The notes beneath the pieces were generated by a model. The model worked only from the letters and a program-made list of their open reading frames with translations, was not told the origin of the DNA and ran no database searches. A stretch of DNA of 45,909 bases, from NCBI GenBank assembly GCA_964426815.1, contig CAYRRZ010000001.1, positions 6,152 through 52,060 on the forward strand, read 5' to 3'. The position numbers and the translations under genes are program-made. This stretch comes from an uncultured Gammaproteobacteria bacterium (GTDB taxonomy: Bacteria; Patescibacteriota; Patescibacteriia; 2-12-FULL-60-25). Shown piece after piece: positions 2,802-43,265 of the stretch. The number at the start of each line of letters is the position of its first letter. Within the stretch, counting starts at the first letter, position 1.

Positions 2802-3281
2802 TCAGCTCAAGGTTTGGTCTGGAAGTTCTGGTTTTTTCTTTTTTACAAAACGCCAAGGTTCGTGATGAAAGGTAAAAAGTCGATGCGAGGTAAAGGTAAA
2901 CATCGCGACCAAACCCGTATTCAAGAGAATAACCGCCAGGTCGAATAAATGAAGAATATCGTGCCCAATCCAAAAAAATACATTATTTAAACCGGTCGCG
3001 ATCACGGCTACGGTCGCAAAACGACCAATAGCACCCTGCGCTCCCCTTCCCTGGGCTTGGAAGGTAAGTTTTTTATTGAGGAGAAAATTTATCCAGGTCA
3101 CGATAATAACCACTCCTGCATAGGCAAGCGTTCGATTGGCGTGAGGCCACAGTGTACGCGTCGCTAAGGCATATAAACCCATGGTTAAAGCCAAAGACAA
3201 GATACCCACGCAGATAAATCGAAGTAAACGTGGGAGTTCGGGCTTTAGCCGATTCCAGATTCTAGCGAGGCCAGGATTCAT
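2802..3281 (-). CDS. GtrA-family small membrane protein (polyprenyl-phosphate-sugar handling)
   Basis: 159 aa with about four hydrophobic helices and an N-terminal LLRFICVGILSLALTMGLYAL segment typical of GtrA-like proteins. Basic KKKK C-terminus. Overlaps the protease stop by 20 nt. Confidence 0.6.
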   Translation of the reverse strand: MNPGLARIWNRLKPELPRLLRFICVGILSLALTMGLYALATRTLWPHANRTLAYAGVVIIVTWINFLLNKKLTFQAQGRGAQGAIGRFATVAVIATGLNNVFFWIGHDILHLFDLAVILLNTGLVAMFTFTSHRLFTFHHEPWRFVKKKKPELPDQTLS

Positions 3282-5151
3282 AGTAGAGCCAACCCGAGTT
3301 TAATTGCTGACCTTCGGGCACTTGAGTCCAACGCGTAACAGGGATACCGACCGTGCTTGGCGTCAGACCAGAACCATCATTTACCAGAATAAGTTTTCCA
3401 TCTTTTGCTCGTAATTCATAGACCGAACCATTTCCCTTTCGAGCGGCACGACGCAAGCTCCAACCGCCTTGCTTACCCATGGCACTAACTGGACCCTGCG
3501 CCAAAATGCTTCCGCCGCGGCCGATAATGGTCACCTGTCGGTCGGAGCCGCGTGAGGCAATAAGAAATCCAGCACGTGGTCGCGTGACCGACAAAGCTGA
3601 ACTCCCCTGTTGTGCGCGACTGGCAAAAGGCTGAATTTCGAGTGGCTTTGGTTCATTTGCGGAGACGAGCCACATCCGTGGTCCTTTTGCTTCAAGTAAA
3701 AGTAATTCATCTTTTCCATCTGCATCCAAGTCCTGCGAGGCCATGATCAAACCACCTCGAATATCTGAAGCGCCGACGGAGCCCGCCGCGAGTAATACGC
3801 CATCCCAACGATAGACTTTCCATGAACCAGAAGCGTCATCCGCCATGGTCACGGCAATATCTGGCAATTGAGACAGTTGCCAATGCAAAAAGCCGGCGCG
3901 AACTTGGCTCCGGGACTCTGACCCAAGGTCTAGATATTGAATTGCATCCCCGGTATTCGATAAAACTCGAACCATGGCACGCTTGCCGCCGGCAGATCCT
4001 TCAAGAAAAAAGGGACCACGCACGGCTTTTTCAGCATCCGAAGTCGCAACCGCTGCCTTTGCATTAATAAGACCGGTTCCCATTTTTCCATTAAAGGCTG
4101 GATTCGTTTCATTGACCGTGGTTGCGGTTTGGCGGATATGCTGTGCGATGTCTTCTGCCGTCCAATCTGGATGCAGCGACTTTATCAATGCAGCCAAGCC
4201 AGCCACGAGCGGAGCAGCGACCGATGTACCCGATAAACCGCCGCGATACCCCGCAGCCGCGAGTTGACGATCCGTATGCGCATAAGTCGGACGTGCTGCA
4301 AATAAATTTTCTCCAGGCGCAGAAACATCAACGCATGACCCATAGTTTGCATATTCTGCTTTTTTCCCAGCTTGATTGACCGAGGTTACGCTAATCGAGC
4401 CTCTTCCACCCGCGCCTTTATTGCAGGCAGGAAAACCAGCTGTTTTATCCAAGTCTTCTCCCAGGATCGTGTCGCCATTACCGGCTGCACTCACGATAAG
4501 CACTCCTTGTGAGGTTGCATCATCGATTGCGGCTGATAATACCTGGTCTTTTTCGTAGCCAACAAAACTCAAATTAATGATGTCTGCGCCTTGAGCTACC
4601 GCATAGCGAATAGCCTGAGCAATATCGATATCACTCCCCTCGCCCTGAGCATTCAACACCACCAGCGGCATTATTCGTACATTCCACGCTACACCCGAGA
4701 TCCCAATATCATTATTGCCGCGAGCGCCGATCAATGAAGCGACCACGGTTCCATGAATAAAGGCCTCGTCAATCCCGTCTTTAGAAACAATGGGTCGAAC
4801 ATCCGCACTCTGTTCAACAAAGTTCCAGCCATGCACATCGTCGATGAGCCCATTCTCATCATCGTCTTTTTGATTATTTGGAATTTCAAGTGGATTTGTC
4901 CAAATATTTTGTCGCAAATCCGGGTGATCAATATCAACGCCAGAATCAATGACGGCTACAACGACGTCCGTCGTGCCCGTGGTCTGAGTCCAGGCCTCAG
5001 GCGCGTGAATAGCGTCGAGATGCCATTCCTTATCAAAAAAAGTGTCATTTACTGACACTTGTTCAGCAGACACGGCAGATACGCCAAGCGAGACTTGGAG
5101 AAGAAGCGCGATGCATCCGGCAATCAGGCGCTTGTTTGCCTTTTTTTCCAT
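3262..5151 (-). CDS. Secreted subtilisin-like serine protease (peptidase S8) with C-terminal FG-GAP/VCBS-like region
   Basis: Catalytic triad blocks VAVIDSGVDIDHPDL (Asp), HGTVVASLIG (His) and GTSVAAPLVAGLAAL (Ser). Signal-peptide-like KKANKRLIAGCIALLLQVSLGVSAVSA. DLDADGKDELLLL repeat-like motif in the C-terminal ~250 aa. Start placed at Met17 (5151) of ORF 3262..5199. Confidence 0.85.
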   Translation of the reverse strand: MEKKANKRLIAGCIALLLQVSLGVSAVSAEQVSVNDTFFDKEWHLDAIHAPEAWTQTTGTTDVVVAVIDSGVDIDHPDLRQNIWTNPLEIPNNQKDDDENGLIDDVHGWNFVEQSADVRPIVSKDGIDEAFIHGTVVASLIGARGNNDIGISGVAWNVRIMPLVVLNAQGEGSDIDIAQAIRYAVAQGADIINLSFVGYEKDQVLSAAIDDATSQGVLIVSAAGNGDTILGEDLDKTAGFPACNKGAGGRGSISVTSVNQAGKKAEYANYGSCVDVSAPGENLFAARPTYAHTDRQLAAAGYRGGLSGTSVAAPLVAGLAALIKSLHPDWTAEDIAQHIRQTATTVNETNPAFNGKMGTGLINAKAAVATSDAEKAVRGPFFLEGSAGGKRAMVRVLSNTGDAIQYLDLGSESRSQVRAGFLHWQLSQLPDIAVTMADDASGSWKVYRWDGVLLAAGSVGASDIRGGLIMASQDLDADGKDELLLLEAKGPRMWLVSANEPKPLEIQPFASRAQQGSSALSVTRPRAGFLIASRGSDRQVTIIGRGGSILAQGPVSAMGKQGGWSLRRAARKGNGSVYELRAKDGKLILVNDGSGLTPSTVGIPVTRWTQVPEGQQLNSGWLYYESWPR

Positions 5152-5219
5152 TGATTTATTGTACCCGACTAGGGCATGGATTGCGACAAATCGCTGCATC
5201 TGGCAAGCTTTATGTCAAT
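5152..5219. promoter_or_regulatory. Divergent intergenic region between the protease operon (-) and the glycosylphosphotransferase gene (+); promoters presumed
   Basis: 68-nt gap left after trimming both ORFs to the Met where recognisable protein sequence begins. No convincing -35/-10 pair identified by eye. Confidence 0.25.
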
Positions 5220-6611
5220 ATGATTCACTTCGGCCTTCGCTTTAAGCGGCTCACCTTGCTCGTGGGCGATTATGCGGTCCTTCAAATCGCTCTGCTCCTG
5301 ACCCTGTGGATTCGCTATGGCGCAATTCACACCTCGGATATAAACCGGCACTTGCTTCCATTTAGCCTGCTCGGACTACTCTGGATTGGTTCTTTTTACG
5401 TGAATGGCTTGTACGACACGTTATTTGCCCGTGATCAGTTTTTGCAGTTTCGTAAATATGTCGAAGCGATGCTCATCAATTTGCTGATTGGGCTCGCCTT
5501 TTTCTACATCATTCCATTCGGTATCGCTCCTCGTACCAATTTGTTTTTGTATGTCGCGATTGCGCTCATGCTGGGATATGCTTGGCGCTTGATACATGCG
5601 CAAAAAGTTGCCCCTTCTCTTTTTCGAAATGCCGTTTTGTATATTGGACATGCGGATGATGCTCGGCGCTTGAAAGACCTTCTTGAGCAAAGTGGCCAAG
5701 GCTATGAGTTAAAGGCGGTCATCGAGACCGCTCCTGGTAGCCGCATCGCTGATGGTTCGGTATTTTGGCATGTGGATGTGATGCAAATCGAACGCATCAT
5801 TCAAGAACAAGCCATTCAAACCATTGTCCTTGGCCATAAACCAGACGACATTCCTGGCTTACGCGATGCCTTGTACAAAACACTTTTCATGTCGGTCAGT
5901 ATCATTGATCGCGCAACGCTTGAAGAGGCGGTGACCGGACGCGTGCCTCTCGAATTTGTGTCTCAGACTTGGTTTTTAGAAAATCTACGTGAAGTTGATA
6001 AGGCTTGGTATGAAGGTGCGAAGCGCGTGTTTGATCTTTTTCTTGCTATTCCATTCGGCTTGATCACCTTGGTGGTTTTTCCATTTGTAGCTCTGGCCAT
6101 TCGCCTATCTTCCCCGGGCCCAATCTTGATTCGACAGACGCGCATCGGGAAAATTGGCCACCCATTCACCCTGTACAAATTTCGTAGCATGCATGCCCTA
6201 TCTGCAGACGGAAGTGCTGAAACAGCTGGTGCCCAATTTACAACCAATGCCAAGACCGACCCACGCCTTTTTCCGATCGGTCGACTCATGCGCCAATTGC
6301 GCATTGATGAATTACCCCAGATTTGGAATGTCTTACGCGGCGATGTTTCTTTTATTGGTCCAAGACCTGAAAGACCAGAGTTTGTGACTCCGCTTATTGA
6401 ACGCATGCCGTTTTATGCCCTGCGTCATTTAACGCGTCCTGGATTAACCGGATGGGCTCAGACGCGCTTCTTAACCCCAACCTCAAGTCTTGAAGACAAT
6501 CTCAAAAAGCTTCAGTACGACTTGTACTATATTCGTCATCGCTCCCTGTTTTTGGATGCGGCCATCTTGCTCAAAACGATTGGTATTGTCCTACGGAGAC
6601 AAGGAACCTAG
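5220..6611 (+). CDS. Polyprenyl-phosphate glycosylphosphotransferase (WbaP/EpsB-like bacterial sugar transferase), initiating enzyme
   Basis: N-terminal TM helices. C-terminal bacterial sugar transferase block: KRVFDLFLAIPFGLITLVVFPFVALAIRLSSPGPILIRQTRIGK...FTLYKFRSM...DPRLFPIGRLMRQLRIDELPQIWNVLRGDVSFIGPRPERPEF...RPGLTGWAQ. Start placed at the ATG at 5220. Confidence 0.85.
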   Translation: MIHFGLRFKRLTLLVGDYAVLQIALLLTLWIRYGAIHTSDINRHLLPFSLLGLLWIGSFYVNGLYDTLFARDQFLQFRKYVEAMLINLLIGLAFFYIIPFGIAPRTNLFLYVAIALMLGYAWRLIHAQKVAPSLFRNAVLYIGHADDARRLKDLLEQSGQGYELKAVIETAPGSRIADGSVFWHVDVMQIERIIQEQAIQTIVLGHKPDDIPGLRDALYKTLFMSVSIIDRATLEEAVTGRVPLEFVSQTWFLENLREVDKAWYEGAKRVFDLFLAIPFGLITLVVFPFVALAIRLSSPGPILIRQTRIGKIGHPFTLYKFRSMHALSADGSAETAGAQFTTNAKTDPRLFPIGRLMRQLRIDELPQIWNVLRGDVSFIGPRPERPEFVTPLIERMPFYALRHLTRPGLTGWAQTRFLTPTSSLEDNLKKLQYDLYYIRHRSLFLDAAILLKTIGIVLRRQGT

Positions 6612-17719: not shown

Positions 17720-17744
17720 ATAACATGAGTCATTGTAACCGAAC

Positions 17745-19921: not shown

Positions 19922-19924
19922 ACG

Positions 19925-24681: not shown

Positions 24682-24784
24682 TTTTTTTGATTTATTGCAA
24701 ATAGATGCCTTGACTTTTTTAGCTTTTTATTGTACTCAAACCCTACACGTCCTTTTTAAAAACCATTCGACCACGGAGAGCTTC
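24682..24784. promoter_or_regulatory. AT-rich divergent intergenic region; presumed promoters for the 24681-> minus operon and the 24785-> plus operon
   Basis: 103 nt. On the minus strand a TACAAT -10-like hexamer (plus coordinates 24729..24734) lies about 48 nt upstream of the ATG at 24681. GGAGAG Shine-Dalgarno at 24775..24780, 4 nt before the ATG at 24785. No good -35 found. Confidence 0.3.
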
Positions 24785-27740: not shown

Positions 27741-28446
27741 CTATTCACTTTTCACACACATGAAGCTCCAAGGACCCGGATATGAGACGGCGGAATCTAT
27801 CCGTCAACAACATGAAACGATGAAGCAGTACTATCAAGAAACGCCGGCTTGGGTTGTTACTGAAAAACATGCGGAAAAGTACATTTGTGAACAGATATCC
27901 CAACTTGATGCGCCGATTTCTGATATTGGTGCATCGGGAGGCATTTTTTTACGCGGATTACAATCACATGGATATACCAATTTAACTGCAATTGACATTG
28001 ATAATTATCTTCAAGATGATGTAAAGAATTCATTCGCATTTGTTGCAGCTAATTTAAACTTTGAATCTATTCCATTAGCGGATAAGTCCCAGGAGGTTGT
28101 CACCTGTTTATCTGTAATGGAGCATCTGGAAAACCCTTTTCACCTCGCTCGTGAAATTCACCGTATCTTAAAACCAGGCGGACTGTGCATCATGTCAATT
28201 CCAAATGCCTTCCATATTTGGTCAAAGATCTCGTTCTTGCTGCATGGAAATTTGACTGATTGGAATGAGAAAAATGCGCACATCACATTTTTACCAAAAG
28301 CTGTTTTCAATAAGATTTATCTTAAGCTCTTCCGAATCGAACATGTCGTGTATCAACACGGTTTTCTCCCCTATTTTCCAGGCATTAAAATGCCTCGAAC
28401 GGAATTCTTTGGACGCCGCACCTGTTATTTTTTGCGGAAGAAATAG
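27733..28446 (+). CDS. Class I SAM-dependent methyltransferase
   Basis: Motifs: DIGASGGIFLRGL, VTCLSVMEHL, LKPGGLCIMSIPN. The start ATG at 27733 overlaps the upstream stop (ATGGATAA). Confidence 0.75.
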   Translation: MDNYSLFTHMKLQGPGYETAESIRQQHETMKQYYQETPAWVVTEKHAEKYICEQISQLDAPISDIGASGGIFLRGLQSHGYTNLTAIDIDNYLQDDVKNSFAFVAANLNFESIPLADKSQEVVTCLSVMEHLENPFHLAREIHRILKPGGLCIMSIPNAFHIWSKISFLLHGNLTDWNEKNAHITFLPKAVFNKIYLKLFRIEHVVYQHGFLPYFPGIKMPRTEFFGRRTCYFLRKK

Positions 28447-29777
28447 TGCAACCGCTTAAAAAAAGCTCGATCCGTATCGTCAATGGTAAAAAAAGCTTTA
28501 CTCGTTGTTTGTAGTTCTGGAAATGTCGCGAGCAATGTTTTCAACCGTAACATATTATAGACGGATACTGAGATCACAAATTCAATCGCAACTCCCATCG
28601 GACCAAAAAAGGCGCAGCTTATCGGCAAGATAATGGCCATAAGGCACAAGCGAAAAGCAACCAACCAAAAAGCACGACGCTGTTCTTGATGCGAAACGTA
28701 GTACGAAGTCAAAATATATGCAACGCCGATAAAAGGAATATAGGCGCAGATCACATAGACAGACGGAATTGCCTGAAGATATTGCGGAAAAGCAATCTGC
28801 GCAATCGGTTTTGCACATACCGCAACCAGCACACTCGCTGCGGTATAAAATGGGACTGTATATCGAATGCCTCGGTATAAAATTTCGCGCAAACGGGTAC
28901 GATCACTTCGATCACTAGCCACCATTGGCATCAATACATCATCTATCGGGAAGACCGAGGCGACATAGGTATACACCTTCTCTACAAAGCTCCAGATCGC
29001 AACAGCCTCGCGCCCAAGCACCGATTGAATAATGAATGGTCTTAGATTTTTCTCTCCCTGCCTCATTAGCTTTTGCGCAATCACCCATGGGCCCATTTTT
29101 TTGATAAATGACCATGCAATCGAAATATCATGCGCCGCACGCCAATATACTGCCAACACTCTCGGTGCAAAAATGATATTTACGGCAAGCATTGAACCTA
29201 GCAGACTTAAAATGAGTGTAAAAGCGGATAACTGGCTCTTGAAAAACAGGCTAAACACAATCAAGACACGAACCCCCTCTTGCACGAGTTGATACAGTGC
29301 CTGCTTCCGAAACTTTTTTTGCGTTGCATTATCGTACCCAATCAAACGTTCAAATGGCATTAATAGGAATATCCAACCGTACACAGACAATAAGTGCAAA
29401 ATGTCCTTTGAATAGACACTGCCAAATACATACTCCGCGCTTTGCGATACGGCGAATACACCCAATCCCAACAGACACCGTAAAATAAAATATGACTTTC
29501 CTAGATTCTTCGCTCGTTCATCTTCACCCATCCCACGCAAATGCGACCCTTCCGCAATAAACACTTCGTCGATACCGATAAGCATCAATAATCCTAATAA
29601 GCTTCCAAAGGAAAGAACGAGTTGATACGTACCGTATTCATGCAATGAAAAACGACTAAAAACAATAATCGTCGTACTAAATCCGAGGATCTTTACCAGG
29701 AATGATCCAGCTGAAACCCAAGCAATCCCAGTTAAGAGCTTTTTAAGAAAAACCGATCGGACTTGAGTAATAGACAT
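28425..29777 (-). CDS. Wzx-like polysaccharide/oligosaccharide flippase (MOP superfamily)
   Basis: About 450 aa with roughly 12-14 hydrophobic helices and an N-terminal KKLLTGIAWVSAGSFLVKILGF pattern. Start placed at Met8 (29777). Confidence 0.65.
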   Translation of the reverse strand: MSITQVRSVFLKKLLTGIAWVSAGSFLVKILGFSTTIIVFSRFSLHEYGTYQLVLSFGSLLGLLMLIGIDEVFIAEGSHLRGMGEDERAKNLGKSYFILRCLLGLGVFAVSQSAEYVFGSVYSKDILHLLSVYGWIFLLMPFERLIGYDNATQKKFRKQALYQLVQEGVRVLIVFSLFFKSQLSAFTLILSLLGSMLAVNIIFAPRVLAVYWRAAHDISIAWSFIKKMGPWVIAQKLMRQGEKNLRPFIIQSVLGREAVAIWSFVEKVYTYVASVFPIDDVLMPMVASDRSDRTRLREILYRGIRYTVPFYTAASVLVAVCAKPIAQIAFPQYLQAIPSVYVICAYIPFIGVAYILTSYYVSHQEQRRAFWLVAFRLCLMAIILPISCAFFGPMGVAIEFVISVSVYNMLRLKTLLATFPELQTTSKAFFTIDDTDRAFFKRLHYFFRKK

Positions 29778-29781
29778 ATTA

Positions 29782-30933
29782 CTAGGGCAGTTTGGCAAAG
29801 AACTGACGTAATGCCAATGCTCTCTGTTCAGGACTCAAAATCCACGCAGCGCCTTGTGCGGCACGCTGTATCTTTTTCCATTCAGGCATGTCCCGAGAAA
29901 GAGAAAAGAAATCCGTGATCGCTTTTCCCCAGGCCTGCGGATCATCTGCCGGCGCAAACAGCACCGCCTCAGATCCATACACGCTTTCTTTAATAGAAGG
30001 GAGATCACTTGCCAGGACCGGAACCTCAGCCGCAGCCGCCTCCTGTAGTTTCATTGGATTTGTATCTCTCCGAGAAATATCGAACTTTCCAGAATTTGGA
30101 ATAGCAATTAAATCAGCAGAGCGAAGCCATTGAGGAATCGCTTGCGCCAGCTGCTGCCCATGAAAAAAAATGCTCGCTCCTGTATGCGGAATCGCTGCGG
30201 CAATTTTTTTTGCCCGATCCAAATCCGCACCCGTGCCGCCAATGATATGAATACAAACATTCTGCGGGGCAAATTCAGCGGAACGAATAAGCGTATCCAC
30301 GCCCTTCCAATCAAACAATTGCCCGGCATAGACGATTATCTTCTCATCCTTCCCAATCCCCACCGATTTCCTTGCAGATTCACGGCTAATGCTGCGATAT
30401 GTTTCCATTGGAAATGCTGGCGGATTGGGTAAAATTGTAATCGGAGGCAGGATGCCAAATTGATCTTTAAGCGCATCTATTTTTAACTGATTCGTACTCA
30501 CGATTCCAGATGCGCGCTTCAAAATAATTTTTACCAAAAAACGATGCGACCACTTTGCAAGGTTTGGGATGTCATGCAAATCCCAAATGATCTTCGCCTT
30601 ACTGTTCAAAGAATGAACCGCTGCCTGTAGCGGGTCATTAATGATAACAATATCTGGCTTCCAAGTAGAAACCACCCGCAGGGACTGTAATGCCCCGAGC
30701 AACCGCAAACATTGAAACATCCCCGGAATAGCTAATGAGATTTGCCAACCAAAAGAAATAAGCTCAACCCCATCAATTTTTTTTGTTAGAACTTTTTGCC
30801 GTTTCGGAAAGGCGATGGCGGTTGCATCTCGCTCTTCATGAAGCTGAGCGAATCCCCGCCCCATTGCTTCGATCTGGATTCCATAGGCTTTTTCTGTCGG
30901 AAAACGAGCATTTACTAAAAACAGAATTCTCAT
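29782..30933 (-). CDS. GT4-family (GT-B) glycosyltransferase
   Basis: Motifs: MRILFLVNARFPTEKAYG, IVYAGQL..WKG, NPMKLQEAAAAEVPVLASDLPS (E-x7-E-like). Start placed at Met25 (30933). Confidence 0.8.
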   Translation of the reverse strand: MRILFLVNARFPTEKAYGIQIEAMGRGFAQLHEERDATAIAFPKRQKVLTKKIDGVELISFGWQISLAIPGMFQCLRLLGALQSLRVVSTWKPDIVIINDPLQAAVHSLNSKAKIIWDLHDIPNLAKWSHRFLVKIILKRASGIVSTNQLKIDALKDQFGILPPITILPNPPAFPMETYRSISRESARKSVGIGKDEKIIVYAGQLFDWKGVDTLIRSAEFAPQNVCIHIIGGTGADLDRAKKIAAAIPHTGASIFFHGQQLAQAIPQWLRSADLIAIPNSGKFDISRRDTNPMKLQEAAAAEVPVLASDLPSIKESVYGSEAVLFAPADDPQAWGKAITDFFSLSRDMPEWKKIQRAAQGAAWILSPEQRALALRQFFAKLP

Positions 30934-32395: not shown

Positions 32396-32400
32396 ATGTT

Positions 32401-33164: not shown

Positions 33165-34112
33165 CTATTTGGTTGAGATTACCTCCTTGATTGAATAGGG
33201 TTTTCGATGCTGCGCCTCAAAGTATGTACGCATCAAAACCTCTGCCATCAGGCCAAAAAGAACAAATTGAACCCCGACAATAACAAGCATCGCGCCAACA
33301 ACCGGGAGTGGCGTTGCTACAAAATCACGTACATGCCCCAGTTTTAACAGTATTGCCACTACTTCTGCACCCAATCCACAGGCAAGCGATGCAAACCCGA
33401 TAACCCCAAAAAAATGCATCGGCCGACTAAAGTACTTTGTCAGAAAACGTACCACAACCAAATCTAGCAGGACTTTGAAGACTCGAAAAAGCCCGTACTT
33501 TGAAACTCCTGCAACCCGAGGCCGATGATTTACCACAATTTCTGTGACTCCGGCACCAATACCTGCTGCATACACCGGAATAAACCGATGCATCTCTCCA
33601 TACAAATCAATATCTTGAATAATCTCCCGTCGATAGGCCTTCAAGCTACAACCATAATCATGAATATGTACCCCGGTTGCCCAAGAAATCAATCTATTTG
33701 CCATCCATGATGGAATCTTGCGAAGAACTAACCCATCTTTTCTGTCCTTGCGCCAGCCTGAGACGCACCCAAATCCTTGATTGATTTTTTCTAGAAGTTT
33801 TGGAATATCCGCTGGGTCGTTTTGACGATCGGCATCCATCGGAATGATCACATCGCCAGTTGCCATTTTTATGCCACATGACATTGCAGCCGTCTGCCCA
33901 AAATTTCTCGCAAATGAAACCACTATACACCGAGCATCTTTTGCCTGAATTTTTTTTAAAACCTCGAGGCTCTTGTCCTTTGAACCATCATCTACAAAGA
34001 TATACTCCCAAGAATCTGCAGACATTCGCGTTGCAATCGCAACGAGCTCGTCATGCAATGGCGCCAGGTTTTCTTCTTCATTGTAGACTGGAATAACGAT
34101 ACTCAATTTCAT
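33165..34112 (-). CDS. GT2 polyprenyl-phosphate glycosyltransferase (ArnC/GtrB-like, two C-terminal TM helices)
   Basis: 315 aa. Motifs: LSIVIPVYNEEENL, FVDDGSKDKS, PMDADRQNDP. Hydrophobic C-terminal helices. Confidence 0.8.
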   Translation of the reverse strand: MKLSIVIPVYNEEENLAPLHDELVAIATRMSADSWEYIFVDDGSKDKSLEVLKKIQAKDARCIVVSFARNFGQTAAMSCGIKMATGDVIIPMDADRQNDPADIPKLLEKINQGFGCVSGWRKDRKDGLVLRKIPSWMANRLISWATGVHIHDYGCSLKAYRREIIQDIDLYGEMHRFIPVYAAGIGAGVTEIVVNHRPRVAGVSKYGLFRVFKVLLDLVVVRFLTKYFSRPMHFFGVIGFASLACGLGAEVVAILLKLGHVRDFVATPLPVVGAMLVIVGVQFVLFGLMAEVLMRTYFEAQHRKPYSIKEVISTK

Positions 34113-36001: not shown

Positions 36002-37399
36002 TTATTTGATTGTTATATTTCGAATACGCTCCATCACCTTTGGCAGACTACTCCAGAGATCTGACACCGTACAAACGCTCACAATCAGGACAGCGACCGC
36101 ACCTGATCGCATTCGTCCCTTCCAACTCCCCGTCATTGCGAGCCAATATCCCATAACCAATACAGCAAATGGCAACATTGGAATACGGTAGCGATTTACT
36201 ACGACCGTTAGTGTCGGCGCCACGGCCAACAATATGATAGCCAAAATCGAAAAAACAATTATCGGCGGCACTCGCTTTTTACGCCACACTATTTCGACCA
36301 AACCAGCAAAAGCCGATACCCAAATAATCGCATTAAAGACGATTGATCCGATGAGCGTGAATAGCTGATCTATCGATGAATGATAATGAAACCAAAAAGC
36401 GGATGTTTTTGTAAGCGCAAAAAGCTTCAATGCTTTATGTGCCGTACGTCCAATGGCAAAAAGCGGTTTTTCACGAATAATCTTTTTCGTCTCTTCGATA
36501 CTCACGCGATCGATCTGATCAGGTTCGAGTCCTTGAATCTTACTCGTGATATGCGGTAAAGCGTCCATGTTAAAAACACCTGGGCTATATGGGTCCAAAC
36601 CCACCCAAAAATCCAGACCACCAACGACAGAGTTTAAGATAAAGTGATTGTACAAACGCTCATTTCGAATTGCCCACGGTGTTTGAATAGCAATAACACT
36701 CACGATCACAATCAAACTTATTCTCCACTTTTTTCTCCAAAGTAAAAAAAGAACCAATGCGCAAACAAAAGGGAGACCCGTCGGACGCACCATCATCAAT
36801 ACGCCGCCCAGCAAACCGATCACAACCCATTCCCATCTCGGCTTGTCCCCTTTTTTCTCAATTGTTTTGAGAAAAAGTCCAGCCAGTCCAACCAGTAAAA
36901 AAACAAATACATTTTCAGACATGATCATCGCTGTACTTTGGATGACGTCCGGATGAAGGGCATACAAACCGACTGGAAAAGCTACGTGCCATTCTGGCCC
37001 TGATGTATCGATATTTTTTCGGAGCAAGCCATACAGCCACCAGCATACGGCTGCATGCATAAGCGCCTGTATGAACCAGACAATCCAGATATGGATACCG
37101 AATGTTTTGTAGATTCCAGCTAAGAAAAATTGATAACCTGGACCAATGTCCCGAATTGCCCAATCCTTTTGCAAAGGAACATCACAGGTAAAGCAAAAGG
37201 TGTTTTTTGTCGCCAAGTTCATGGCGATGGTATTAAATTTTCTTGCGTCCACCGAAGGCGTTATTTGATAGCTCAATGCATATCCAAATGAAACGACACA
37301 GGCTATAAGAGCGATCCAGGTGCGCCAGGGCGAAACACGATGAATCTCCCGCATGCTTGCCCCCAGTCTTTTGCCCGCTTCGATGCATATTCGGATCAT
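36002..37399 (-). CDS. GT-C-like (ArnT/PMT_2-type) integral membrane glycosyltransferase, putative
   Basis: 465 aa, multi-TM. First-loop motif SVDARKFNTIAMNLATKNTF. An alternative start at Met16 is possible. Confidence 0.55.
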   Translation of the reverse strand: MIRICIEAGKRLGASMREIHRVSPWRTWIALIACVVSFGYALSYQITPSVDARKFNTIAMNLATKNTFCFTCDVPLQKDWAIRDIGPGYQFFLAGIYKTFGIHIWIVWFIQALMHAAVCWWLYGLLRKNIDTSGPEWHVAFPVGLYALHPDVIQSTAMIMSENVFVFLLVGLAGLFLKTIEKKGDKPRWEWVVIGLLGGVLMMVRPTGLPFVCALVLFLLWRKKWRISLIVIVSVIAIQTPWAIRNERLYNHFILNSVVGGLDFWVGLDPYSPGVFNMDALPHITSKIQGLEPDQIDRVSIEETKKIIREKPLFAIGRTAHKALKLFALTKTSAFWFHYHSSIDQLFTLIGSIVFNAIIWVSAFAGLVEIVWRKKRVPPIIVFSILAIILLAVAPTLTVVVNRYRIPMLPFAVLVMGYWLAMTGSWKGRMRSGAVAVLIVSVCTVSDLWSSLPKVMERIRNITIK

Positions 37400-37411: not shown

Positions 37412-38008
37412 TTAGCGCTTCCGTATCAAGAAAAAATGGTGGTATGGCATCCACGGCGAAACCCAATCACGTTCCAAGGCACCATGCTTCGACAAGATGT
37501 CCGTAATTCGTGTGCGTGGATATGAGGTGCGCCCAATTTCCCACTCATGCACTCCGCCTGATGGGATCGGTTTTTTGATTGGCAGTTTCCATGCCCAGCG
37601 AATTTCGGGCAGGCCTGGCAGATCAACAATGAATCGCAAGGTATACCCCCAATGCGGCAAAGATAAGACCACTCCTTTTTTTGATACACGAAGCAATTCT
37701 TTGATTGCACTCTCAAATGAAGTAAATGGGAGATGCTCCAGAACCTCAGCGCATAACGCGACATCTACTGTGTTGTCAGGCAGCGGAATTTTTTCGACCG
37801 ATGCAATAATATCTGGCTGCAATGCAGCATCAATATCGAGTGTTGTTACTCGTAGCCCTTGGCGCTTAAGCGTATCTGTCACAATCGCATTTCCAACACC
37901 AATCTCTAATACGGTCTCAGGAGCGAATCCAAGAACGCAATCGACTTGTCGAAAATAGCTCGTCCAACGACCTTCAAACTCATAGCGCTTCCAGGATTCG
38001 TAAGGCAT
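37412..38008 (-). CDS. Class I SAM-dependent methyltransferase (small)
   Basis: 198 aa. Motifs: VLEIGVGNAIVTDTL, VALCAEVLEHL. Confidence 0.7.
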   Translation of the reverse strand: MPYESWKRYEFEGRWTSYFRQVDCVLGFAPETVLEIGVGNAIVTDTLKRQGLRVTTLDIDAALQPDIIASVEKIPLPDNTVDVALCAEVLEHLPFTSFESAIKELLRVSKKGVVLSLPHWGYTLRFIVDLPGLPEIRWAWKLPIKKPIPSGGVHEWEIGRTSYPRTRITDILSKHGALERDWVSPWMPYHHFFLIRKR

Positions 38009-38011
38009 AGG

Positions 38012-41000
38012 TTAATTCATTTCTTGTATGACTCGTGAGAGTGTCTCATGCCTGCGGTGATGTTTACAGACAATGTCACGCAGCATATGAGGCGATGATA
38101 ATTCCCCATTCTCAAAAGCTTGTATTGCTTTGGCGAACAGCTCCGGCTTTGATGCTGAAATGAAATACGCTCCAGGCAAAATATCTCGCAGAGCGATATT
38201 CGAACTGAATGATGGGCATTCGCAAGCCATTGCCTCAAGCACCGCTTTGTCCAAACTTCCGGTTTCACTCGCATTTACAAAGTATGAGGCGGATTGATAT
38301 GCCGTACGAACATCGACCAATGACTTACCCCCGACAAAGTGAACACGATCCTGTACGCCAAGTTCGAGACTTTTCTTCTTTAAATCTGCAACATATTGCT
38401 GATCGCTTGGTAATACCGCTTCTCCAACAATATCGAGGGTATACGTTGGACCCAATTGCTTAATCAAATCGATGAAAAGATCGATTTGCTTGGTTGGCGT
38501 CAAGCGGCCTGTGCTCACGATTCGACCTGGAATGCGCATTTTTGTCGATACAGGTGGGACAAAAAAATCTGTATCGATTGCATGACCCATAAATCGAACT
38601 TTTGTCGTTTTCAGACGAAAACTCTCTGCATTGGCACTGAATATTTTTTTCACCAAACGTTCTGCCAAGCGCAAAACTCCCGTTACTTGCTTGTGTGTAT
38701 ACCAAAGATACATTGGGACACGGAAACAAAAACTAAGTGGCCAAGCGAACACGACATACAAAGGAACCATGAGTACTAATATTCGATCTGAACGCGGAAT
38801 CGTTACGCTCATTAGGTACACAAGCCGCGCGAACTGCTTTATTTTCGATACTCCTTTTTCTTTTCCGAGTGAATGCACGGTCACATTTTCAGGGAGATGA
38901 AACTCCCCGACGGACTGGGCGATAACCTCCACCGACTCGACCAAGGTTGAGAATTCCTGCAACCATCCAACATGCACGGCTAAATTTCGATCATTTGCAT
39001 CAACTCTTTGGGTAATGACAAGCAATTTCTTTTTCTTCATCGGACCTGGTGATGGACGTAACTTTGTCCAAGCATAAGCGACAAATAAAAACTCTATCGG
39101 CATGAGCATGAACCGAAGTCTGGCCTCAATACCCAAACCGTCGACCCAAATCGTTGCTGTGAGATATGCGCACAGGGAGGCAATTAAGGTAAGTTCGAGA
39201 CGCCGCCCAGGAAGCCCCATCCACGCCAAAATATATCCCTGAATAAATAGGATGGTTAAGACAAGCCAAATAAGGCGGCCAAGAAAACCAATAATATAGA
39301 ATGGCTGCGAAAAAATCTCTCCAAGTGATTTGAATAGATCAAGATATCGTCCTTGGGCGAGATAATGACTTGGCGGCAAGGTCGAGTGCGTTAGTCGCGG
39401 CGTGAGATGATAGTAATTCAGGAAAGAATTGTAATTACTCGACGTCCACAGAGTGAAGGTATTGATAGCAAAAATACGCGCAACGATCACTGGATTTTCT
39501 TGCATGTATCTCAATGCTTCTTTTGCATAGAGCTGATTTTTTTGTACTTCGCCTCCGCCCTCACCATACTTTTTTGTAAATTCAGCCGTCACTCGAGCCT
39601 CCGCTTCTGGATACGAAACGTGATCGCGAACAGACACGATCGAGGTACCTAGGTAGAACAAAGCCGCAACAGATCCTTGATTACTTAGTGCGGCGGAATC
39701 ATGAACGCGTTTATTGTGAATGATCCATGGCGCAAGAATGATCGCCATCGTACTCGCTATCAGAAGTCCATGTGTACACAACTTCTTCCAATCAAAGCGC
39801 TTCAGCCACGGCGCATAGAATAGTCCGAGAAATAACGGAAAAAACTGAAGCAGAGGCTTGATAAGAATACCTAAACTGCAACATATCCCGACATAGACGG
39901 CATAGCGTTTTTCCTTTGTTTGAAAGGCGTAAAAAGCCGCCAAAAGACCGAGCAAGAACAAAAAAGTGTAGACCGTCTCCGTTAAAACGGTGACGCTAAA
40001 AAAAATGAGATGTGGTTCAATGGCTGTAATCCAAGCCGCAAGGCGCGAACTTCGTTCTTCAAAACCGAGCGCGCGTCCAAGCCGAAGTACGAGGAGCGGC
40101 AAACAAGAAGCGAGCAGAAGCTGAAAAAAAATAACCATCGGCAAGGACTTGAAAAGACTCAAACCGATTGCCAATAGACCAGGGTAGCCAATCGTGCGAA
40201 AAAAGAATGGCTTCCCATCTAACATAAACCCGTTTCCATCAGCTAAAGATTGGGCGAGGCCAAGATATTGCTTACTATCTCCTAGCATCAAACCCGATTC
40301 ACCAACAAAAAAAAGAATAATCGTGAATAGAGCCAAACGCAGTACGAATGCCGTCACCCAGATTTTCCAAGCAGATCGACTCACTCGCTTTCCCGTCTGT
40401 GTGAGCGAAGCGCGAATATTGTTTTTCAGTTGCTCAAAACCTGGAAGGACTTGTGCTGCCTTTCTCGCCTCAATTCCAAAAGCTGCCGCCTGTTTTGGAT
40501 TTTGCAAAAGCTGAATCATCGCTTGTGCTAATTGGGCTATATCTTGCGGCGGCACAATCAACCCAGACTTTTGATGCACGATCACTTCGCCAGCGCAGCC
40601 AACATCAGTCATGACGATTGGTACTCCAGCTGCTGCGGCCTCGATAACGGCTATCCCCCACCCCTCATAGCGCGATGGCTGAACATAGACCGAAGCTGTT
40701 TGCAAAAAAGGACGAACATCTTCCTGACTCCCCAAAAACTCAACAGCGGATTCAATTCCAAGTCGTTTTACCTTTTCTTTTAACAAAACTTCTTCTGGTC
40801 CAGAACCAATCAGTTGCACCTTCGCATTCGGCACACTCTTCAATACCTCGGGCAAAGCATTCATCAAAACGTCCATTCCCTTTTCCCAATTGAGTCGACC
40901 AATGGAGACGATCACTGGCTGGTGAGATGGTTTGCGCTCAAGAGCCTCAAAGCGAGAAATATCGGTCGCTACCGGTACAACATCCACCTTTTCTTTCTCA

Positions 41001-41473
41001 ATCCCTTTTGCAATTAATCCTCTTTTTCCGCGCTGACTCACGGTCCGGACTCGATCAGCTCGATTCAATACAAATGTAGAAAGGAGTTGCAGTATTCGAT
41101 CTTTTAACCCAATCGCCGGTCGTGCATACACGCCACTGTGATCCTGCACATGCAAACCTGTCGTTTTTGCAAATTGAGCAATTAACCCCAGCCAACCAGA
41201 AAAAAACGGATCCTGGACGGTTATCGCATCAAAGTCATTATTTCGCGACAGCTTGAATATCGTAGTTATAGCCCGAAGATATGCTTGAACTCGATGAGAA
41301 CCGCCAATAAGGTGCGCGGTTATCCCTGGTGAAATCTCAACTGTCGCCGATTTGCCAGGAGCGACAATCGCAATGTCGACGTTCCAACCGGCATAATACT
41401 CCGCCTGCCTTTTTGCTGAAGGCGAATCAGGCCGTGCCACGGTCGCGTCCATTCCTATCACGAGCAAGCGCAT
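38012..41473 (-). CDS. Tri-domain fusion: GT4 (aa 1-~360) + GT-C-like membrane domain (aa ~368-805) + second GT4-like domain (aa ~812-1153)
   Basis: 1153-aa uninterrupted ORF. The N-terminal domain has SIGRLNWEKG and SRYEGWGIAVIEAAAAGVPIVMTD. The middle has about 10-12 TM helices with MLGDSKQYLGLAQSLADGNGF. The C-terminal domain has STGRLTPTKQ and SETGSLDKAVLEAMACECP. Confidence 0.75.
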   Translation of the reverse strand: MRLLVIGMDATVARPDSPSAKRQAEYYAGWNVDIAIVAPGKSATVEISPGITAHLIGGSHRVQAYLRAITTIFKLSRNNDFDAITVQDPFFSGWLGLIAQFAKTTGLHVQDHSGVYARPAIGLKDRILQLLSTFVLNRADRVRTVSQRGKRGLIAKGIEKEKVDVVPVATDISRFEALERKPSHQPVIVSIGRLNWEKGMDVLMNALPEVLKSVPNAKVQLIGSGPEEVLLKEKVKRLGIESAVEFLGSQEDVRPFLQTASVYVQPSRYEGWGIAVIEAAAAGVPIVMTDVGCAGEVIVHQKSGLIVPPQDIAQLAQAMIQLLQNPKQAAAFGIEARKAAQVLPGFEQLKNNIRASLTQTGKRVSRSAWKIWVTAFVLRLALFTIILFFVGESGLMLGDSKQYLGLAQSLADGNGFMLDGKPFFFRTIGYPGLLAIGLSLFKSLPMVIFFQLLLASCLPLLVLRLGRALGFEERSSRLAAWITAIEPHLIFFSVTVLTETVYTFLFLLGLLAAFYAFQTKEKRYAVYVGICCSLGILIKPLLQFFPLFLGLFYAPWLKRFDWKKLCTHGLLIASTMAIILAPWIIHNKRVHDSAALSNQGSVAALFYLGTSIVSVRDHVSYPEAEARVTAEFTKKYGEGGGEVQKNQLYAKEALRYMQENPVIVARIFAINTFTLWTSSNYNSFLNYYHLTPRLTHSTLPPSHYLAQGRYLDLFKSLGEIFSQPFYIIGFLGRLIWLVLTILFIQGYILAWMGLPGRRLELTLIASLCAYLTATIWVDGLGIEARLRFMLMPIEFLFVAYAWTKLRPSPGPMKKKKLLVITQRVDANDRNLAVHVGWLQEFSTLVESVEVIAQSVGEFHLPENVTVHSLGKEKGVSKIKQFARLVYLMSVTIPRSDRILVLMVPLYVVFAWPLSFCFRVPMYLWYTHKQVTGVLRLAERLVKKIFSANAESFRLKTTKVRFMGHAIDTDFFVPPVSTKMRIPGRIVSTGRLTPTKQIDLFIDLIKQLGPTYTLDIVGEAVLPSDQQYVADLKKKSLELGVQDRVHFVGGKSLVDVRTAYQSASYFVNASETGSLDKAVLEAMACECPSFSSNIALRDILPGAYFISASKPELFAKAIQAFENGELSSPHMLRDIVCKHHRRHETLSRVIQEMN

Positions 41474-41529
41474 AGATAGTGGAAGCTTGCCATATCGTCA
41501 AAAAACAATAAAGCCGCTAGACTTGGGCT
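41474..41529. promoter_or_regulatory. Divergent intergenic region between the 41473-> minus operon and the 41530-> plus gene pair; promoters presumed
   Basis: 56-nt gap between two divergent start codons. No convincing hexamers identified by eye. Confidence 0.2.
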
Positions 41530-42471
41530 ATGCTTATCCTGCTCTACCACGGCGTTCGCCCTCCGGAGGACCATATTTCACCAGATATTCGGCAAAAGCA
41601 TGTCTCAGCCCACAGTTTTGAACGCCAACTTCGTTTTTTAGGTAAAACACATCGTTTCTACTCACTTTCTGAAGTGCTCGGTTTTTTTGAACGTGGTAAG
41701 CCCCTTCCTCGATTCGGCGCCTGCATCACATTTGATGATGGCTATCAAAACAATGCCACCATCGCAGCTCCCATTTTGAAACAGCTTGGTATTCCGGCAA
41801 CATTTTTTGTTACCACTGGCTTCGTCGACCATCAGTGCACGCTTTGGGTTGATCGATTTGAATCTGCTTTTTCACAACTTTCATCTCCACAGCCACATTT
41901 TCAGATCCAGAACGAATCCATCGCCCTCAATCTCACTTCGCCAGCTCAGCGCAAAACATCAGATAGCTTGTTGCGTGAACGGCTAAAAAAATGCCCACCT
42001 GAAGAGCGTGAACGCGTTTTAACCGAACTTGAAAACCGAGCTCATTCAAACAAGATCTTCCCTCTTCATGAACCAATGACCTGGGATCAGATACGCCAAT
42101 TACGCGCAGATGGTTTTGAAATCGGTCCGCACACGGTAACCCATCCGATTCTTTCACGCTGTACTCCGGAACAGGTCGAACAAGAGATTTTTGAAAGTAA
42201 GCGACGAGTTGAGCAAGAACTCGGTGAATCGGTTGTGCATTTTGCACATCCAAACGGTCAACCGTCGGATTGGAATCCTGCCGTCATGGATACGATTCGT
42301 CGTGCCGGATTCAAAACCTGTTCAACGACCATTAGTCATAGAACGCAAAAGAAACAAGATCCTTTTTTCCTCCCTCGATTGACGGTTGATATGGGTGATG
42401 ATTTTTTTCGCTTTGTCTTGACCAGTAGCGGAATCCGTTCCATGCTATCGTCGATAAAACGCCTGCTCTAA
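41530..42471 (+). CDS. Polysaccharide deacetylase (NodB homology domain, CE4)
   Basis: 313 aa. Motifs: ITFDDGYQNN (TFDD motif), HTVTHPIL (HxxxH), HPNG. Confidence 0.8.
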   Translation: MLILLYHGVRPPEDHISPDIRQKHVSAHSFERQLRFLGKTHRFYSLSEVLGFFERGKPLPRFGACITFDDGYQNNATIAAPILKQLGIPATFFVTTGFVDHQCTLWVDRFESAFSQLSSPQPHFQIQNESIALNLTSPAQRKTSDSLLRERLKKCPPEERERVLTELENRAHSNKIFPLHEPMTWDQIRQLRADGFEIGPHTVTHPILSRCTPEQVEQEIFESKRRVEQELGESVVHFAHPNGQPSDWNPAVMDTIRRAGFKTCSTTISHRTQKKQDPFFLPRLTVDMGDDFFRFVLTSSGIRSMLSSIKRLL

Positions 42472-42479
42472 CCACCTCT

Positions 42480-43265
42480 ATGACTGAATTTCAAGCGCAA
42501 GAACGAGTCACTACCCACTTTGATACGGCCGCCCCTGTTTATTTCAGTTGGTATGAAGCCATGAATCCAGATGGGCATTCTTTTCGTGCGCGTCGTATTC
42601 GCTGCATGGAATTATTGAAAAAGCATGTTGAAAAAGGCTCAAAAGTAGCTGATATCGCCTGCGGTCCAGCGACCATGTTTAAGGAAATTCTTGATGCGGG
42701 CTTCAAACTGTATGCAACCGATATTGCTCCGCACATGATTGAGGAATGCCGCAAACAATATGGAACCGATCCACGGGTTGAGCTCGCCGTTTGTCCAGCT
42801 GATGCGATTCCGGTTGCTGATGGCTCGATTCAGGCCGTGAGCGCCATGGGTTTATTAGAGTATTTGAATAATGAAGACCAGGTCTTACGTGAATTTCACC
42901 GCATCTTAGCTCCACAGGGAGTTGCTATTTTGACCTATCCGCATTATTACAGCCCAACTCGTATCTGGAATCGTTTTACACATGCTATCGCAAAACCATT
43001 TTTGTCCGTCGCACGAAAAGGACAAGTTCCAAAAGGCGTAAAGCATCGTGAATATCACCTAAAAGAAACTGTGCAGCAAGTTGAGCGCGCGGGCTATAAA
43101 GTTGAAGATGTCATTTTCTACAATTTTAAATTAGCCCTTCGTCCATTTGATTCCTTGTTTCCTGTTTTCAGCGTAAAAATCTCAGAGAAACTGGAACGCT
43201 TTGCGCGTACCCCTTTTCTTCATCGCATTGGTACCGGATTTATTCTGCTTGCGCGAAAGAAATAA
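42480..43265 (+). CDS. Class I SAM-dependent methyltransferase
   Basis: 261 aa. Motifs: KVADIACGPATMF, AVSAMGLLEYL, LAPQGVAILTYP. Confidence 0.8.
   Translation: MTEFQAQERVTTHFDTAAPVYFSWYEAMNPDGHSFRARRIRCMELLKKHVEKGSKVADIACGPATMFKEILDAGFKLYATDIAPHMIEECRKQYGTDPRVELAVCPADAIPVADGSIQAVSAMGLLEYLNNEDQVLREFHRILAPQGVAILTYPHYYSPTRIWNRFTHAIAKPFLSVARKGQVPKGVKHREYHLKETVQQVERAGYKVEDVIFYNFKLALRPFDSLFPVFSVKISEKLERFARTPFLHRIGTGFILLARKK

Follow-up and report, generated by a model that had tools for sequence, protein, structure and literature searches.

A rare fusion of three predicted glycosyltransferase modules in a glycan island of uncultured Patescibacteria

Two-face glycan pathways and the fused gene

Glycan pathways that work on both faces of a membrane, among them those for phosphatidylinositol mannosides (PIM), lipomannan (LM) and lipoarabinomannan (LAM), for N-glycan precursors, for glycosylphosphatidylinositol (GPI) anchors and for O-antigen decoration, normally use separate proteins, and the pairing of a cytoplasmic enzyme with an outward-facing glycosyltransferase (GT) of the GT-C fold is usually worked out genetically. 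Here we describe a gene that places such enzymes in a single chain. It lies in a 45,909-nucleotide stretch of contig CAYRRZ010000001.1 (the whole stretch is called the window below), deposited under the name of an uncultured Gammaproteobacteria bacterium and placed by GTDB in the Patescibacteriota, and it encodes a GT4 part (module 1), a GT-C membrane part (module 2) and a GT4-like GT-B part (module 3). We consider it fairly likely that this polypeptide arose by fusion of neighbouring genes of a conserved Uhrbacteria-like surface-glycan cluster and that its three GT modules serve three steps of one pathway. The gene is thus no new kind of enzyme but a rare fusion within a surface-sugar pathway that is otherwise ordinary; precedents exist for all of its folds and steps, and sister genomes have unfused versions of it. 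The unusual point is that GT-B sites of the inner face and a GT-C site of the outer face stand in one chain.

The mycobacterial PIM pathway offers a close parallel in its logic, with two peripheral cytoplasmic GT4 enzymes that use nucleotide sugars on an acceptor anchored in the membrane, then flipping, then a GT-C that uses a polyprenyl-phosphate-sugar (PMC12041525). There the cytoplasmic GT-B enzymes PimA and PimB are followed by PimE, a GT-C_A enzyme with its N and C termini inside, whose first juxtamembrane helix, JM1, bears the catalytic Asp at its tip (PMC12041525). PimB' and PimA are among the nearest solved sequences to module 1, and PimE is among the Foldseek matches of module 2. The Pim enzymes, in contrast, are three proteins encoded apart; PimE has 12 transmembrane (TM) helices as against the ten proposed for module 2, to which it has no detectable sequence similarity; and the acceptor in the present case is more likely a polyprenyl-diphosphate glycan than phosphatidylinositol.

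Similar pairings of GT4 with GT-C enzymes are known from the eukaryotic endoplasmic reticulum, where ALG2 and ALG11 precede ALG3, ALG9 and ALG12 on the way to the N-glycan precursor and PIG-A precedes PIG-M in making the GPI anchor. One lipid-linked glycan is there extended by GT4 enzymes on the cytosolic face and by GT-C enzymes, which use dolichyl-phosphate-sugar donors, on the far face, and ALG9, ALG3 and GPI mannosyltransferase I all match module 2 in Foldseek. These are all separate proteins, however, and the likeness is one of fold and logic only. The ArnC/ArnT and GtrA/GtrB/GtrC systems combine a GT2 synthase of polyprenyl-phosphate-sugar, a small protein of GtrA type as its presumed flippase and a GT-C that consumes it outside, and all three kinds are encoded in the island around the fused gene; ArnT (5f15, 5ezm) is also a Foldseek match of module 2. 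In those systems, unlike here, the GT-C stands alone, has more helices or an outer soluble domain, and carries no cytoplasmic GT-B. Finally, two-domain GT4-GT4 enzymes, such as the soluble or peripheral WbdA of Escherichia coli O9a, resemble relatives of our protein that consist of module 1 and module 3 with nothing between them (P0013, P0015 and many proteins of ~700 amino acids, aa), whereas the window protein has a polytopic membrane module of 445 aa between its GT-B parts.

An earlier reading of the gene, made from its sequence only, knew of no characterised protein with this arrangement, and our searches agree. None of the PDB chains matches more than the GT4 part of the window protein, and full-text literature searches turned up no account of such an architecture, nor of how this lineage makes its glycans.

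The reading frame, its three modules and their topology

The open reading frame (ORF) occupies 38012..41473 on the minus strand and runs from an ATG through 1153 aa to a stop in a single uninterrupted frame in the ORF listing, exactly as the sequence-only reading had it; under the base composition of the window, 1153 stop-free codons would be expected by chance with a probability of ~3e-26. The peptides quoted in that reading are all in place (SRYEGWGIAVIEAAAAGVPIVMTD at aa 267-290, PSPGPMKKKK at aa 807-816 and SETGSLDKAVLEAMACECP at aa 1069-1087), its domain borders are correct to within a few codons, and the start that it gave for the C-terminal domain, nt 39040, coincides with the ATG of Met812. 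Among 5.8 billion proteins searched, eight other protein clusters of 1151-1207 aa match the ORF end to end and share its three-module architecture (P0002-P0009; 41-74% identity, 97-100% query coverage). One of them, MBP9869585.1 (NCBI nr, 'glycosyltransferase [Patescibacteria group bacterium]'), had been deposited earlier and is unstudied.

Contigs 95-100% identical to the gene are present in four unrelated metagenome runs (wastewater, bioreactor sludge, freshwater and one unspecified metagenome), and over nt 37900-41600 they differ from the window by substitutions only, with no insertions, deletions or joints. The junction between GT-C and GT-B is spanned by one metagenome contig (37900-40019) and that between GT4 and GT-C by another (40244-40597), and neither a stop nor a frameshift occurs at either junction in the contigs of these independent runs. 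Among the strain substitutions listed inside the ORF, 29 of 38 are synonymous, the remaining 9 are conservative-looking replacements and none creates a stop; this mostly synonymous variation is the signature of a translated frame. The ORF is real and not an assembly artefact, and would encode a single polypeptide. Some relatives have a stop where the linker lies, and the window probably stems from a metagenome assembly, as its closest relatives all come from metagenomes and metagenome-assembled genomes (MAGs), all of which would suit a lost stop or a frameshift that merged two or three genes during assembly or sequencing. Such an error is nevertheless extremely improbable, considering that the fused ORF recurs in eight further clusters, which derive from different samples, that contigs of four unrelated runs cross both junctions with substitutions only, and that strain variation is mainly synonymous in this very frame.

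To assign the modules, each was scanned separately against Pfam with the gathering scores as cut-offs. Module 1, as aa 1-362 alone, matches Glycos_transf_1 at 144.5 bits (cut-off 26.4) and Glyco_trans_4_4 and Glyco_transf_4 at 54.3 and 46.5 bits (cut-offs 29.7 and 28.5). Besides the two Glu residues of its EX7E motif (Table 1), R193 and K198 of the GRLxxEKG motif are invariant in 24 homologues, and QDHS at aa 110-113 is invariant in the homologue alignment. The nearest solved sequences are the sucrose-phosphate synthase (SPS) Tll1590, PimB', a BshA-like protein and PimA. When the full-length model was compared with the PDB by Foldseek, BshA, MshA, SPS, PimB' and PglA were matched with target-length-normalised TM-scores of 0.68-0.76; the output does not state which GT-B half was aligned, module 1 being the stronger sequence match. 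Only GT-B structures were among the 50 matches listed for this model, and GT-C matches needed a separate model of the membrane part. By its Pfam matches, GT-B fold, EX7E motif and donor-phosphate-binding Arg/Lys pair, module 1 is assigned to GT4, with putative retaining transfer from a nucleotide sugar. A further match, to the Pfam family GT4-conflict (PF20706), was taken as a generic GT4 cross-match, as the neighbourhood is one of glycan biosynthesis and not of defence.

Module 2 was recognised mainly by its fold. Scanned alone, aa 363-812 match Pfam PMT at 26.7 bits (cut-off 22.7), and PMT_2 at 24.4 bits, which is below its cut-off of 26.1. The AlphaFold model of the full-length protein has a mean predicted local distance difference test score (pLDDT) of 90.6, and the membrane part modelled alone has a pLDDT of 91.2 and a predicted template modelling score (pTM) of 0.90. 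The first 31 Foldseek matches of the membrane part in the PDB are all GT-C enzymes (STT3, PglB, AglB, ArnT, ALG9, ALG3, ALG6, Pmt4, Pmt1/2, GPI mannosyltransferase I and PimE) save for two chains of the GPI transamidase complex at ranks 24 and 26; DPY19, Emb and AftA are lower-ranked. Foldseek probabilities are 0.96-1.00 and query-normalised TM-scores 0.31-0.50. The GPI transamidase subunit PIGU itself has a GT-C-like fold (PMC12041525). A sequence profile of module 2 found no match among all PDB chains at E up to 10 (no ArnT, no PimE), and no NCBIfam model matches it. By its fold, then, module 2 is a GT-C, and it has no close relative among characterised proteins.

In GT-C_A enzymes a core of seven TM helices and the juxtamembrane helices JM1 and JM2 carries the catalytic Asp at the JM1 tip in the first outer loop, a position described in PimE, ALG6, ArnT and PglB (PMC12041525). 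The AlphaFold model has two short helices, 398-411 and 429-441, between TM1 and TM2, and D399, the second residue of the first of them, puts an acidic residue at the corresponding tip; it corresponds to PimE D58 by position, not by superposition. D399 is invariant in fused and stand-alone GT-C orthologues alike, as are, or nearly so, the other conserved motifs predicted to face outward: R426, E486-P-H488, T498-E499, K539-P540, LPPxHYLxQGR (aa 699-709) and GLGxExRLR (aa 779-787). On the strength of the model we propose that module 2 is of GT-C_A type, with a predicted lipid-phosphate-sugar donor and an active site on the outer face.

Could this module be no more than a catalytically dead anchor or scaffold that keeps the two GT-B parts close to the membrane? 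Enzymes of GT-B type must be associated with a membrane if their acceptors are lipid-linked, and the PMT_2 score falls under the Pfam cut-off. We regard the idea as very unlikely, given that the residues at the canonical GT-C catalytic positions and the long outer loop are invariant, and that the same conservation is found in stand-alone orthologues, which anchor nothing.

Three described families were tried for module 2 and rejected. Members of the PMT family have an Asp-Glu motif in loop 1 and a MIR domain in a large outer loop; GT39 (protein O-mannosyltransferase) was set aside as the PMT match covers profile positions 87-233 only, with neither a DE motif nor a MIR match. STT3, PglB and AglB have a C-terminal outer domain with WWDYG and acidic DxD/ExD motifs, and GT66, to which they belong, was dropped on account of the lack of a WWD-type or DxD motif, the cytoplasmic linker after the last TM helix and a likeness of fold only. 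ArnT has 13 TM helices plus an outer C-terminal domain; against GT83 (ArnT) speak a profile without PDB match, the ten helices proposed and the lack of an outer C-terminal domain. Across aa 363-812 no WWD-type (WWDYG), DxD or DE motif is found, and an outer C-terminal domain is also absent.

These same features bear on the question of whether the GT-C module is an oligosaccharyltransferase or ligase, which would move a finished glycan, assembled on the inner side by the two joined GT-B parts, en bloc from polyprenyl-diphosphate to a protein (S-layer, pilin) or a wall polymer outside. STT3, PglB and AglB are its best Foldseek matches, although ArnT and ALG9 score nearly equally; its best Pfam match is the protein-O-mannosyltransferase family, although the WWDYG, DxD and DE motifs and the outer domain are missing. 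Stand-alone orthologues adjoin a Wzx-type flippase that would deliver the lipid-linked glycan, whereas the two polyprenyl-phosphate-sugar synthase-like GT2 genes and GtrA of the island fit monosaccharide donors, and ligation could be done by Wzy_C-type proteins that are encoded in related clusters (L001, L006, L007). En bloc transfer is thus an unlikely alternative, and we prefer transfer of a single sugar by module 2.

The topology was worked out from the AlphaFold helices together with loop charges (K+R minus D+E) averaged over 22 homologues. Ten TM helices are proposed, at aa 369-389, 444-466, 477-494, 500-519, 523-538, 545-558, 565-587, 724-752, 757-778 and 785-805. The proposed inner loops and tail have mean net charges of +2.9, +0.95, +2.95, +2.45 and +2.7, as against -1.05, -1.0 and -0.7 for the outer loops EL1, EL2 and EL5. 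The helices 398-411 and 429-441 are read as juxtamembrane helices in the first outer loop (aa 429-441 from the loop charges and by analogy with GT-C_A structures), and the large outer loop, aa 588-723, is 136 aa long. In the relatives P0013 and P0015 (704-710 aa) module 1 is joined straight to module 3, with the membrane part precisely absent, and hence both modules must lie on the same side of the membrane. An 11-helix reading, to which raw hydropathy with its ~11 hydrophobic stretches would lead and which would put module 3 outside, was rejected, as four strongly basic loops would then be outside and the directly joined relatives conflict with it. From this we infer that module 2 has 10 TM helices with N and C termini inside, that both GT-B modules are cytoplasmic and that Asp399 faces outward. 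The sequence-only reading had likewise placed two transferases in the cytoplasm and one outside, and both the loop charges and the GT-C-less forms bear this out.

The junction between modules 2 and 3 retains a trace of its origin. The linker reads PSPGP-M812-KKKKLLVITQRVD, and aa 808-813 are the only stretch with pLDDT < 50 in the full-length model. In relatives, the ATG of Met812 is the start codon of a separate GT-B gene (M-R/K-LL-ITQR-D), so that the junction is a fossil of gene fusion.

Module 3, as aa 813-1153 alone, matches Glycos_transf_1 at 67 bits (cut-off 26.4). When a profile of 25 homologues was compared with solved GT4 structures, 5i45 was matched at 8e-21 and HepE/Alr3699 at 4.7e-13, the latter over both halves (profile positions 64-337), and the model has Rossmann-like strand-helix halves at 816-961 and 984-1090 followed by a C-terminal cross-over helix. 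The profile matches and the secondary-structure pattern agree on a GT-B fold, and with Pfam, confident AlphaFold models and Foldseek they back the chain of GT4, GT-C and GT4-like GT-B parts that had been read from the sequence. Of the two findings by which that reading would have been refuted, a broken frame at a domain junction and a C-terminal domain that is no GT-B, neither appeared. Conserved residues are GH(964)xID, R990, K995, D1075-K1076 and E1080. The canonical EX7E is not present: its second Glu, E1080, is invariant, and the first position is a Gly in (S/T)GSxDK. Module 3 would thus be best described, at the level of sequence, as a divergent GT4-like GT-B subfamily. The most hydrophobic stretch outside the GT-C module, ILVLMVPLYVVFAWPLSFC (aa 899-917, nt 38723-38779), lies in the N-lobe of module 3; it forms a strand and a helix of the Rossmann fold in the model and is conserved in stand-alone homologues, and it may touch the membrane at its surface instead of crossing it as a TM helix.

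Gene arrangements and relatives

The three modules occur in other combinations in related genomes. In arrangement A, the triple fusion, they form one protein (the window, P0002-P0009 and locus L007). In arrangement B a GT4-GTC protein of 816-846 aa is followed by a separate GT-B gene of 341-342 aa (L005, L006), the start of which overlaps the upstream stop as ATGA; L011 has this arrangement too, with overlapping stop-to-stop frames for GT4-GTC and GT-B. The separate GT-B genes of arrangement B are 46-53% identical to module 3. In arrangement C a GT4-GTB protein of 704-710 aa is accompanied by a separate GT-C gene: in L001 the stand-alone GT-C orthologue (54% identity over 438 aa) belongs to the same cluster but lies 6 kb further downstream, where it immediately precedes a Wzx-type flippase. 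Another stand-alone orthologue of module 2, in L009, also adjoins a Wzx-type flippase. The modules thus have at least three interchangeable arrangements, of which the fused state is one. Fusion is dispensable for function, since in sister lineages the work is divided between two or three proteins.

All five related loci inspected (L001, L003, L005, L006, L007) have the modules following a divergent deacetylase-methyltransferase pair, and the same deacetylase, methyltransferases, GT-C genes and GT2 flank them in each. Taken together, the gene arrangements argue for a functional link of the Rosetta-stone type between the three modules. It would be logical to ask if the fusion was simply fortuitous, three neighbours having become one ORF while the modules serve different steps or glycans with no gain from joining. 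Sister lineages have the modules unfused or otherwise fused, and the window holds two other fusions, of GT-C with methyltransferase and of methyltransferase with GT2, which suggest a general tendency to fuse neighbours. This explanation is unlikely in our view, as the modules share a cluster wherever all three were located (L001, L005, L006, L007, L011, L012), recombine only with each other in at least three arrangements, and have their GT4-GTB pair fused in many other proteins of ~700 aa. We keep to three steps of one pathway as the preferred reading.

When one genome per GTDB species was scanned, only seven loci with a close orthologue of module 2 were found: one triple fusion, two GT4-GTC and four stand-alone GT-C. 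Five of the seven are labelled Candidatus Uhrbacteria or Patescibacteria group bacterium, and the other two are MAGs labelled 'uncultured Gammaproteobacteria'. In a representative library of 1.84 billion proteins (50% identity) only four other representatives align end to end, and the same library holds many two-domain GT4-GTB proteins of ~700 aa and many single modules of ~340-360 aa. The triple fusion thus appears rare and taxonomically narrow, with the two-domain GT4-GTB form as its widespread relative; the latter may have come first and have later received a membrane module with an even number of helices.

A fourth arrangement, with GT-C and GT-B but no N-terminal GT4, was suggested by P0065 (813 aa) and rejected. 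The ORF extends beyond the end of its 2.7-kb contig, with a frame that stays open as far as base 1 and the tail of a GT4 domain still present, and P0065 is a truncated tri-domain protein. In more distant Uhrbacteria, P0025 (1190 aa) and P0067 (1159 aa) have the order GT4 - GT4 - GT-C at 29-35% identity, with the membrane part C-terminal, showing that GT-B and GT-C have been fused in at least two different orders. In L005 (911-3172), two GT4 genes, elsewhere single before the deacetylase pair, are fused into one two-GT4 protein of 753 aa. We also noted that L014 and L015 (CAZKEE010000001.1, CAYSAI010000005.1), both titled 'uncultured Gammaproteobacteria bacterium', have the same cluster as Candidatus Uhrbacteria MAGs, with a GT-C 54-55% identical to module 2; their organism label is probably wrong.

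The glycan island and the proposed pathway

By its gene content, the whole 46-kb window is a glycan-biosynthesis island (Table 1).

Table 1. Features of the tri-modular gene and of the surrounding island. Positions are nucleotides of the window unless marked aa.
Feature	Position	Strand	Evidence and remarks
Module 1, predicted cytoplasmic GT4 (GT-B fold)	aa 1-362, nt 40388..41473	-	Pfam, PDB sequence matches, Foldseek
EX7E of module 1, E270 ... E278	40640..40666	-	Invariant columns in 24 homologues
Module 2, GT-C membrane module	aa 363-807, nt 39053..40387	-	Pfam PMT, AlphaFold, Foldseek, loop charges
Asp399, candidate catalytic base of the GT-C module	40277..40279	-	Invariant; AlphaFold helix position
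Thr498-Glu499, short second outer loop	39977..39982	-	Conservation; membrane side predicted from loop charges
Fusion linker	aa 808-815, nt 39029..39052	-	Low pLDDT; holds ATG of Met812 (nt 39038-39040)
Module 3, predicted second cytoplasmic GT-B, GT4-like	aa 816-1153, nt 38015..39028	-	Pfam, PDB profile matches, AlphaFold
NodB-type polysaccharide deacetylase	41530-42471	+	Pfam; divergent pair immediately upstream of the modules
S-adenosylmethionine (SAM) methyltransferase	42480-43265	+	Pfam; second gene of the divergent pair 41530..43265
Methyltransferase, downstream partner	37412-38008	-	Pfam; same order in L003, L007
Second GT-C, downstream partner	36002-37399	-	PMT_2; distantly related, 23% identity to module 2; same order in L003, L007
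ArnC/GtrB/PgfS-like GT2	33165..34112	-	Full-length ArnC-model match, E 3e-62, below curated cut-off; Pfam Glycos_transf_2
AglJ/PpgS/DPM-like GT2	10674-11378
Wzx-type flippase (Polysacc_synt_3)	28425..29798	-	Pfam
GtrA-like small membrane protein, candidate polyprenyl-phosphate-sugar flippase	2802..3281	-	Pfam GtrA_DPMS_TM
Initiating phosphoglycosyl transferase (Bac_transf)	5136..6611	+	Pfam, E 5.9e-55
Further GT-C protein	30935-32428
GT-C + SAM methyltransferase fusion, 766 aa	11382-13682	-	PMT_2 aa 83-242; methyltransferase aa 558-702
Methyltransferase + GT2 fusion, 536 aa	8308-9918	-	Methyltransferase aa 92-249; GT2 aa 302-444

The ArnC-like GT2 (the ArnC model being that of undecaprenyl-phosphate 4-deoxy-4-formamido-L-arabinose transferase) is a candidate polyprenyl-phosphate-sugar synthase that could provide the lipid-linked donor for the GT-C enzymes. 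With candidate lipid-phosphate-sugar synthases, a candidate flippase and a phosphoglycosyl transferase, the island would supply what the GT-C needs and the acceptor that the GT-B modules need.

On this basis a working scheme can be put forward. Modules 1 and 3 would use nucleotide-sugar donors to add sugars at the inner face to a membrane-anchored acceptor, most likely a polyprenyl-diphosphate glycan started by the phosphoglycosyl transferase of the island or, as an alternative, a glycolipid. The Wzx-type flippase would then flip the intermediate, and module 2 would add a further sugar outside from a polyprenyl-phosphate-sugar, with the ArnC/GtrB-like GT2 as its synthase and the GtrA-like protein as its flippase. 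Its active site would consist of Asp399, as base at the first juxtamembrane tip, with R426, E499 and K539, directed outward, and the fusion would fix the stoichiometry and proximity of the three steps. The adjacent NodB-type deacetylase and the best structural matches of the full-length model, BshA and MshA, invite the speculation that N-acetylglucosamine is added and then de-N-acetylated. ORF continuity, folds, motifs, the gene arrangements of the modules and synteny come from the analysis itself; topology, donors, acceptor and step order are all predicted, and the 'assembly line' across both membrane faces, as it was called from the sequence, is what we infer from fusion, synteny and topology.

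Several observations weigh against this reading. A search of RNA runs found none carrying the gene sequence. The full-length AlphaFold model has a pTM of only 0.55, so that relative domain placement in it is unreliable; the best Foldseek E-value of module 2, 2.5e-4, is modest, and its Foldseek E-values do not separate GT-C enzymes that transfer monosaccharides from oligosaccharyltransferases. The helix at aa 429-441 is hydrophobic, and if it spanned the bilayer the parity of the topology would change. The model matches of the GT2 proteins in the island are below curated cut-offs, and where genomes are compact, fusion may unite adjacent genes whose products do not act in successive steps.

A bolder version of the scheme would have the protein act as a trans-bilayer machine, in which the lipid-linked intermediate made by the GT-B modules is handed through or along the GT-C module to the outer site without free diffusion to a separate flippase. 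We hold this to be quite a long shot; if true, a single polypeptide would couple synthesis of the intermediate to its translocation and to glycosylation on the outer face. Flipping by the Wzx-type protein, as in the scheme above, is what we favour.

Other genes of the island are worth recording. Fusion of neighbouring glycan genes seems common in this genome. The 766-aa fusion, with a GT-C part 23% identical to module 2, would from its domain content pair an outward-facing membrane transferase with a cytoplasmic cofactor-dependent enzyme. The 536-aa fusion has a TTG start that overlaps ORF 9731-10720, and its true start is probably further in. The window also holds several GT4 genes, a GDP (guanosine diphosphate)-mannose dehydratase, NeuB, a cytidylyltransferase and an AsnB-like amidotransferase. 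Between the GDP-mannose dehydratase and NeuB, the block 14715-20755 (minus strand) encodes an aminoglycoside-phosphotransferase-type kinase, a full-length transketolase-like protein, an aldehyde dehydrogenase, a haloacid dehalogenase (HAD) hydrolase and a short-chain dehydrogenase/reductase (SDR), and resembles a pathway towards an unusual sugar, modified or extended in its chain, or towards a sugar substituent. The NeuB-family synthase (22125-23216, minus strand) and a cytidylyltransferase of CMP (cytidine monophosphate)-sugar type (27009-27740, plus strand) suggest a nonulosonic or related acid sugar in the glycan. At least nine methyltransferase genes or domains lie in the window (e.g., 7555-8307, 27700-28446, 32401-33162, 37412-38008 and 42480-43265), a density of SAM methyltransferases that suggests a heavily methylated surface glycan. 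Two ORFs of ~460 aa each, 23290-24681 (minus strand) and 24695-26077 (plus strand), match no Pfam family, and one of them has a faint match to a BFO_1060-type glycosyltransferase domain; the 295-aa ORF 20768-21655 (minus strand) has weak inositol-monophosphatase/CysQ-like matches only. The Wzy_C proteins of related clusters, of ~790-840 aa, were not found in the window.

No new fold or new chemistry is revealed here. Module 2, however ordinary its fold, defines a GT-C family without a sequence relative among solved structures, and a stable single-chain GT-B/GT-C/GT-B protein could suit cryo-electron microscopy (cryo-EM) of how the inner-face and outer-face steps are arranged around a membrane. 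The fusion together with its two alternative arrangements amounts to a Rosetta-stone assignment of three anonymous glycosyltransferases to one pathway, in a lineage of uncultured, reduced-genome Patescibacteria.

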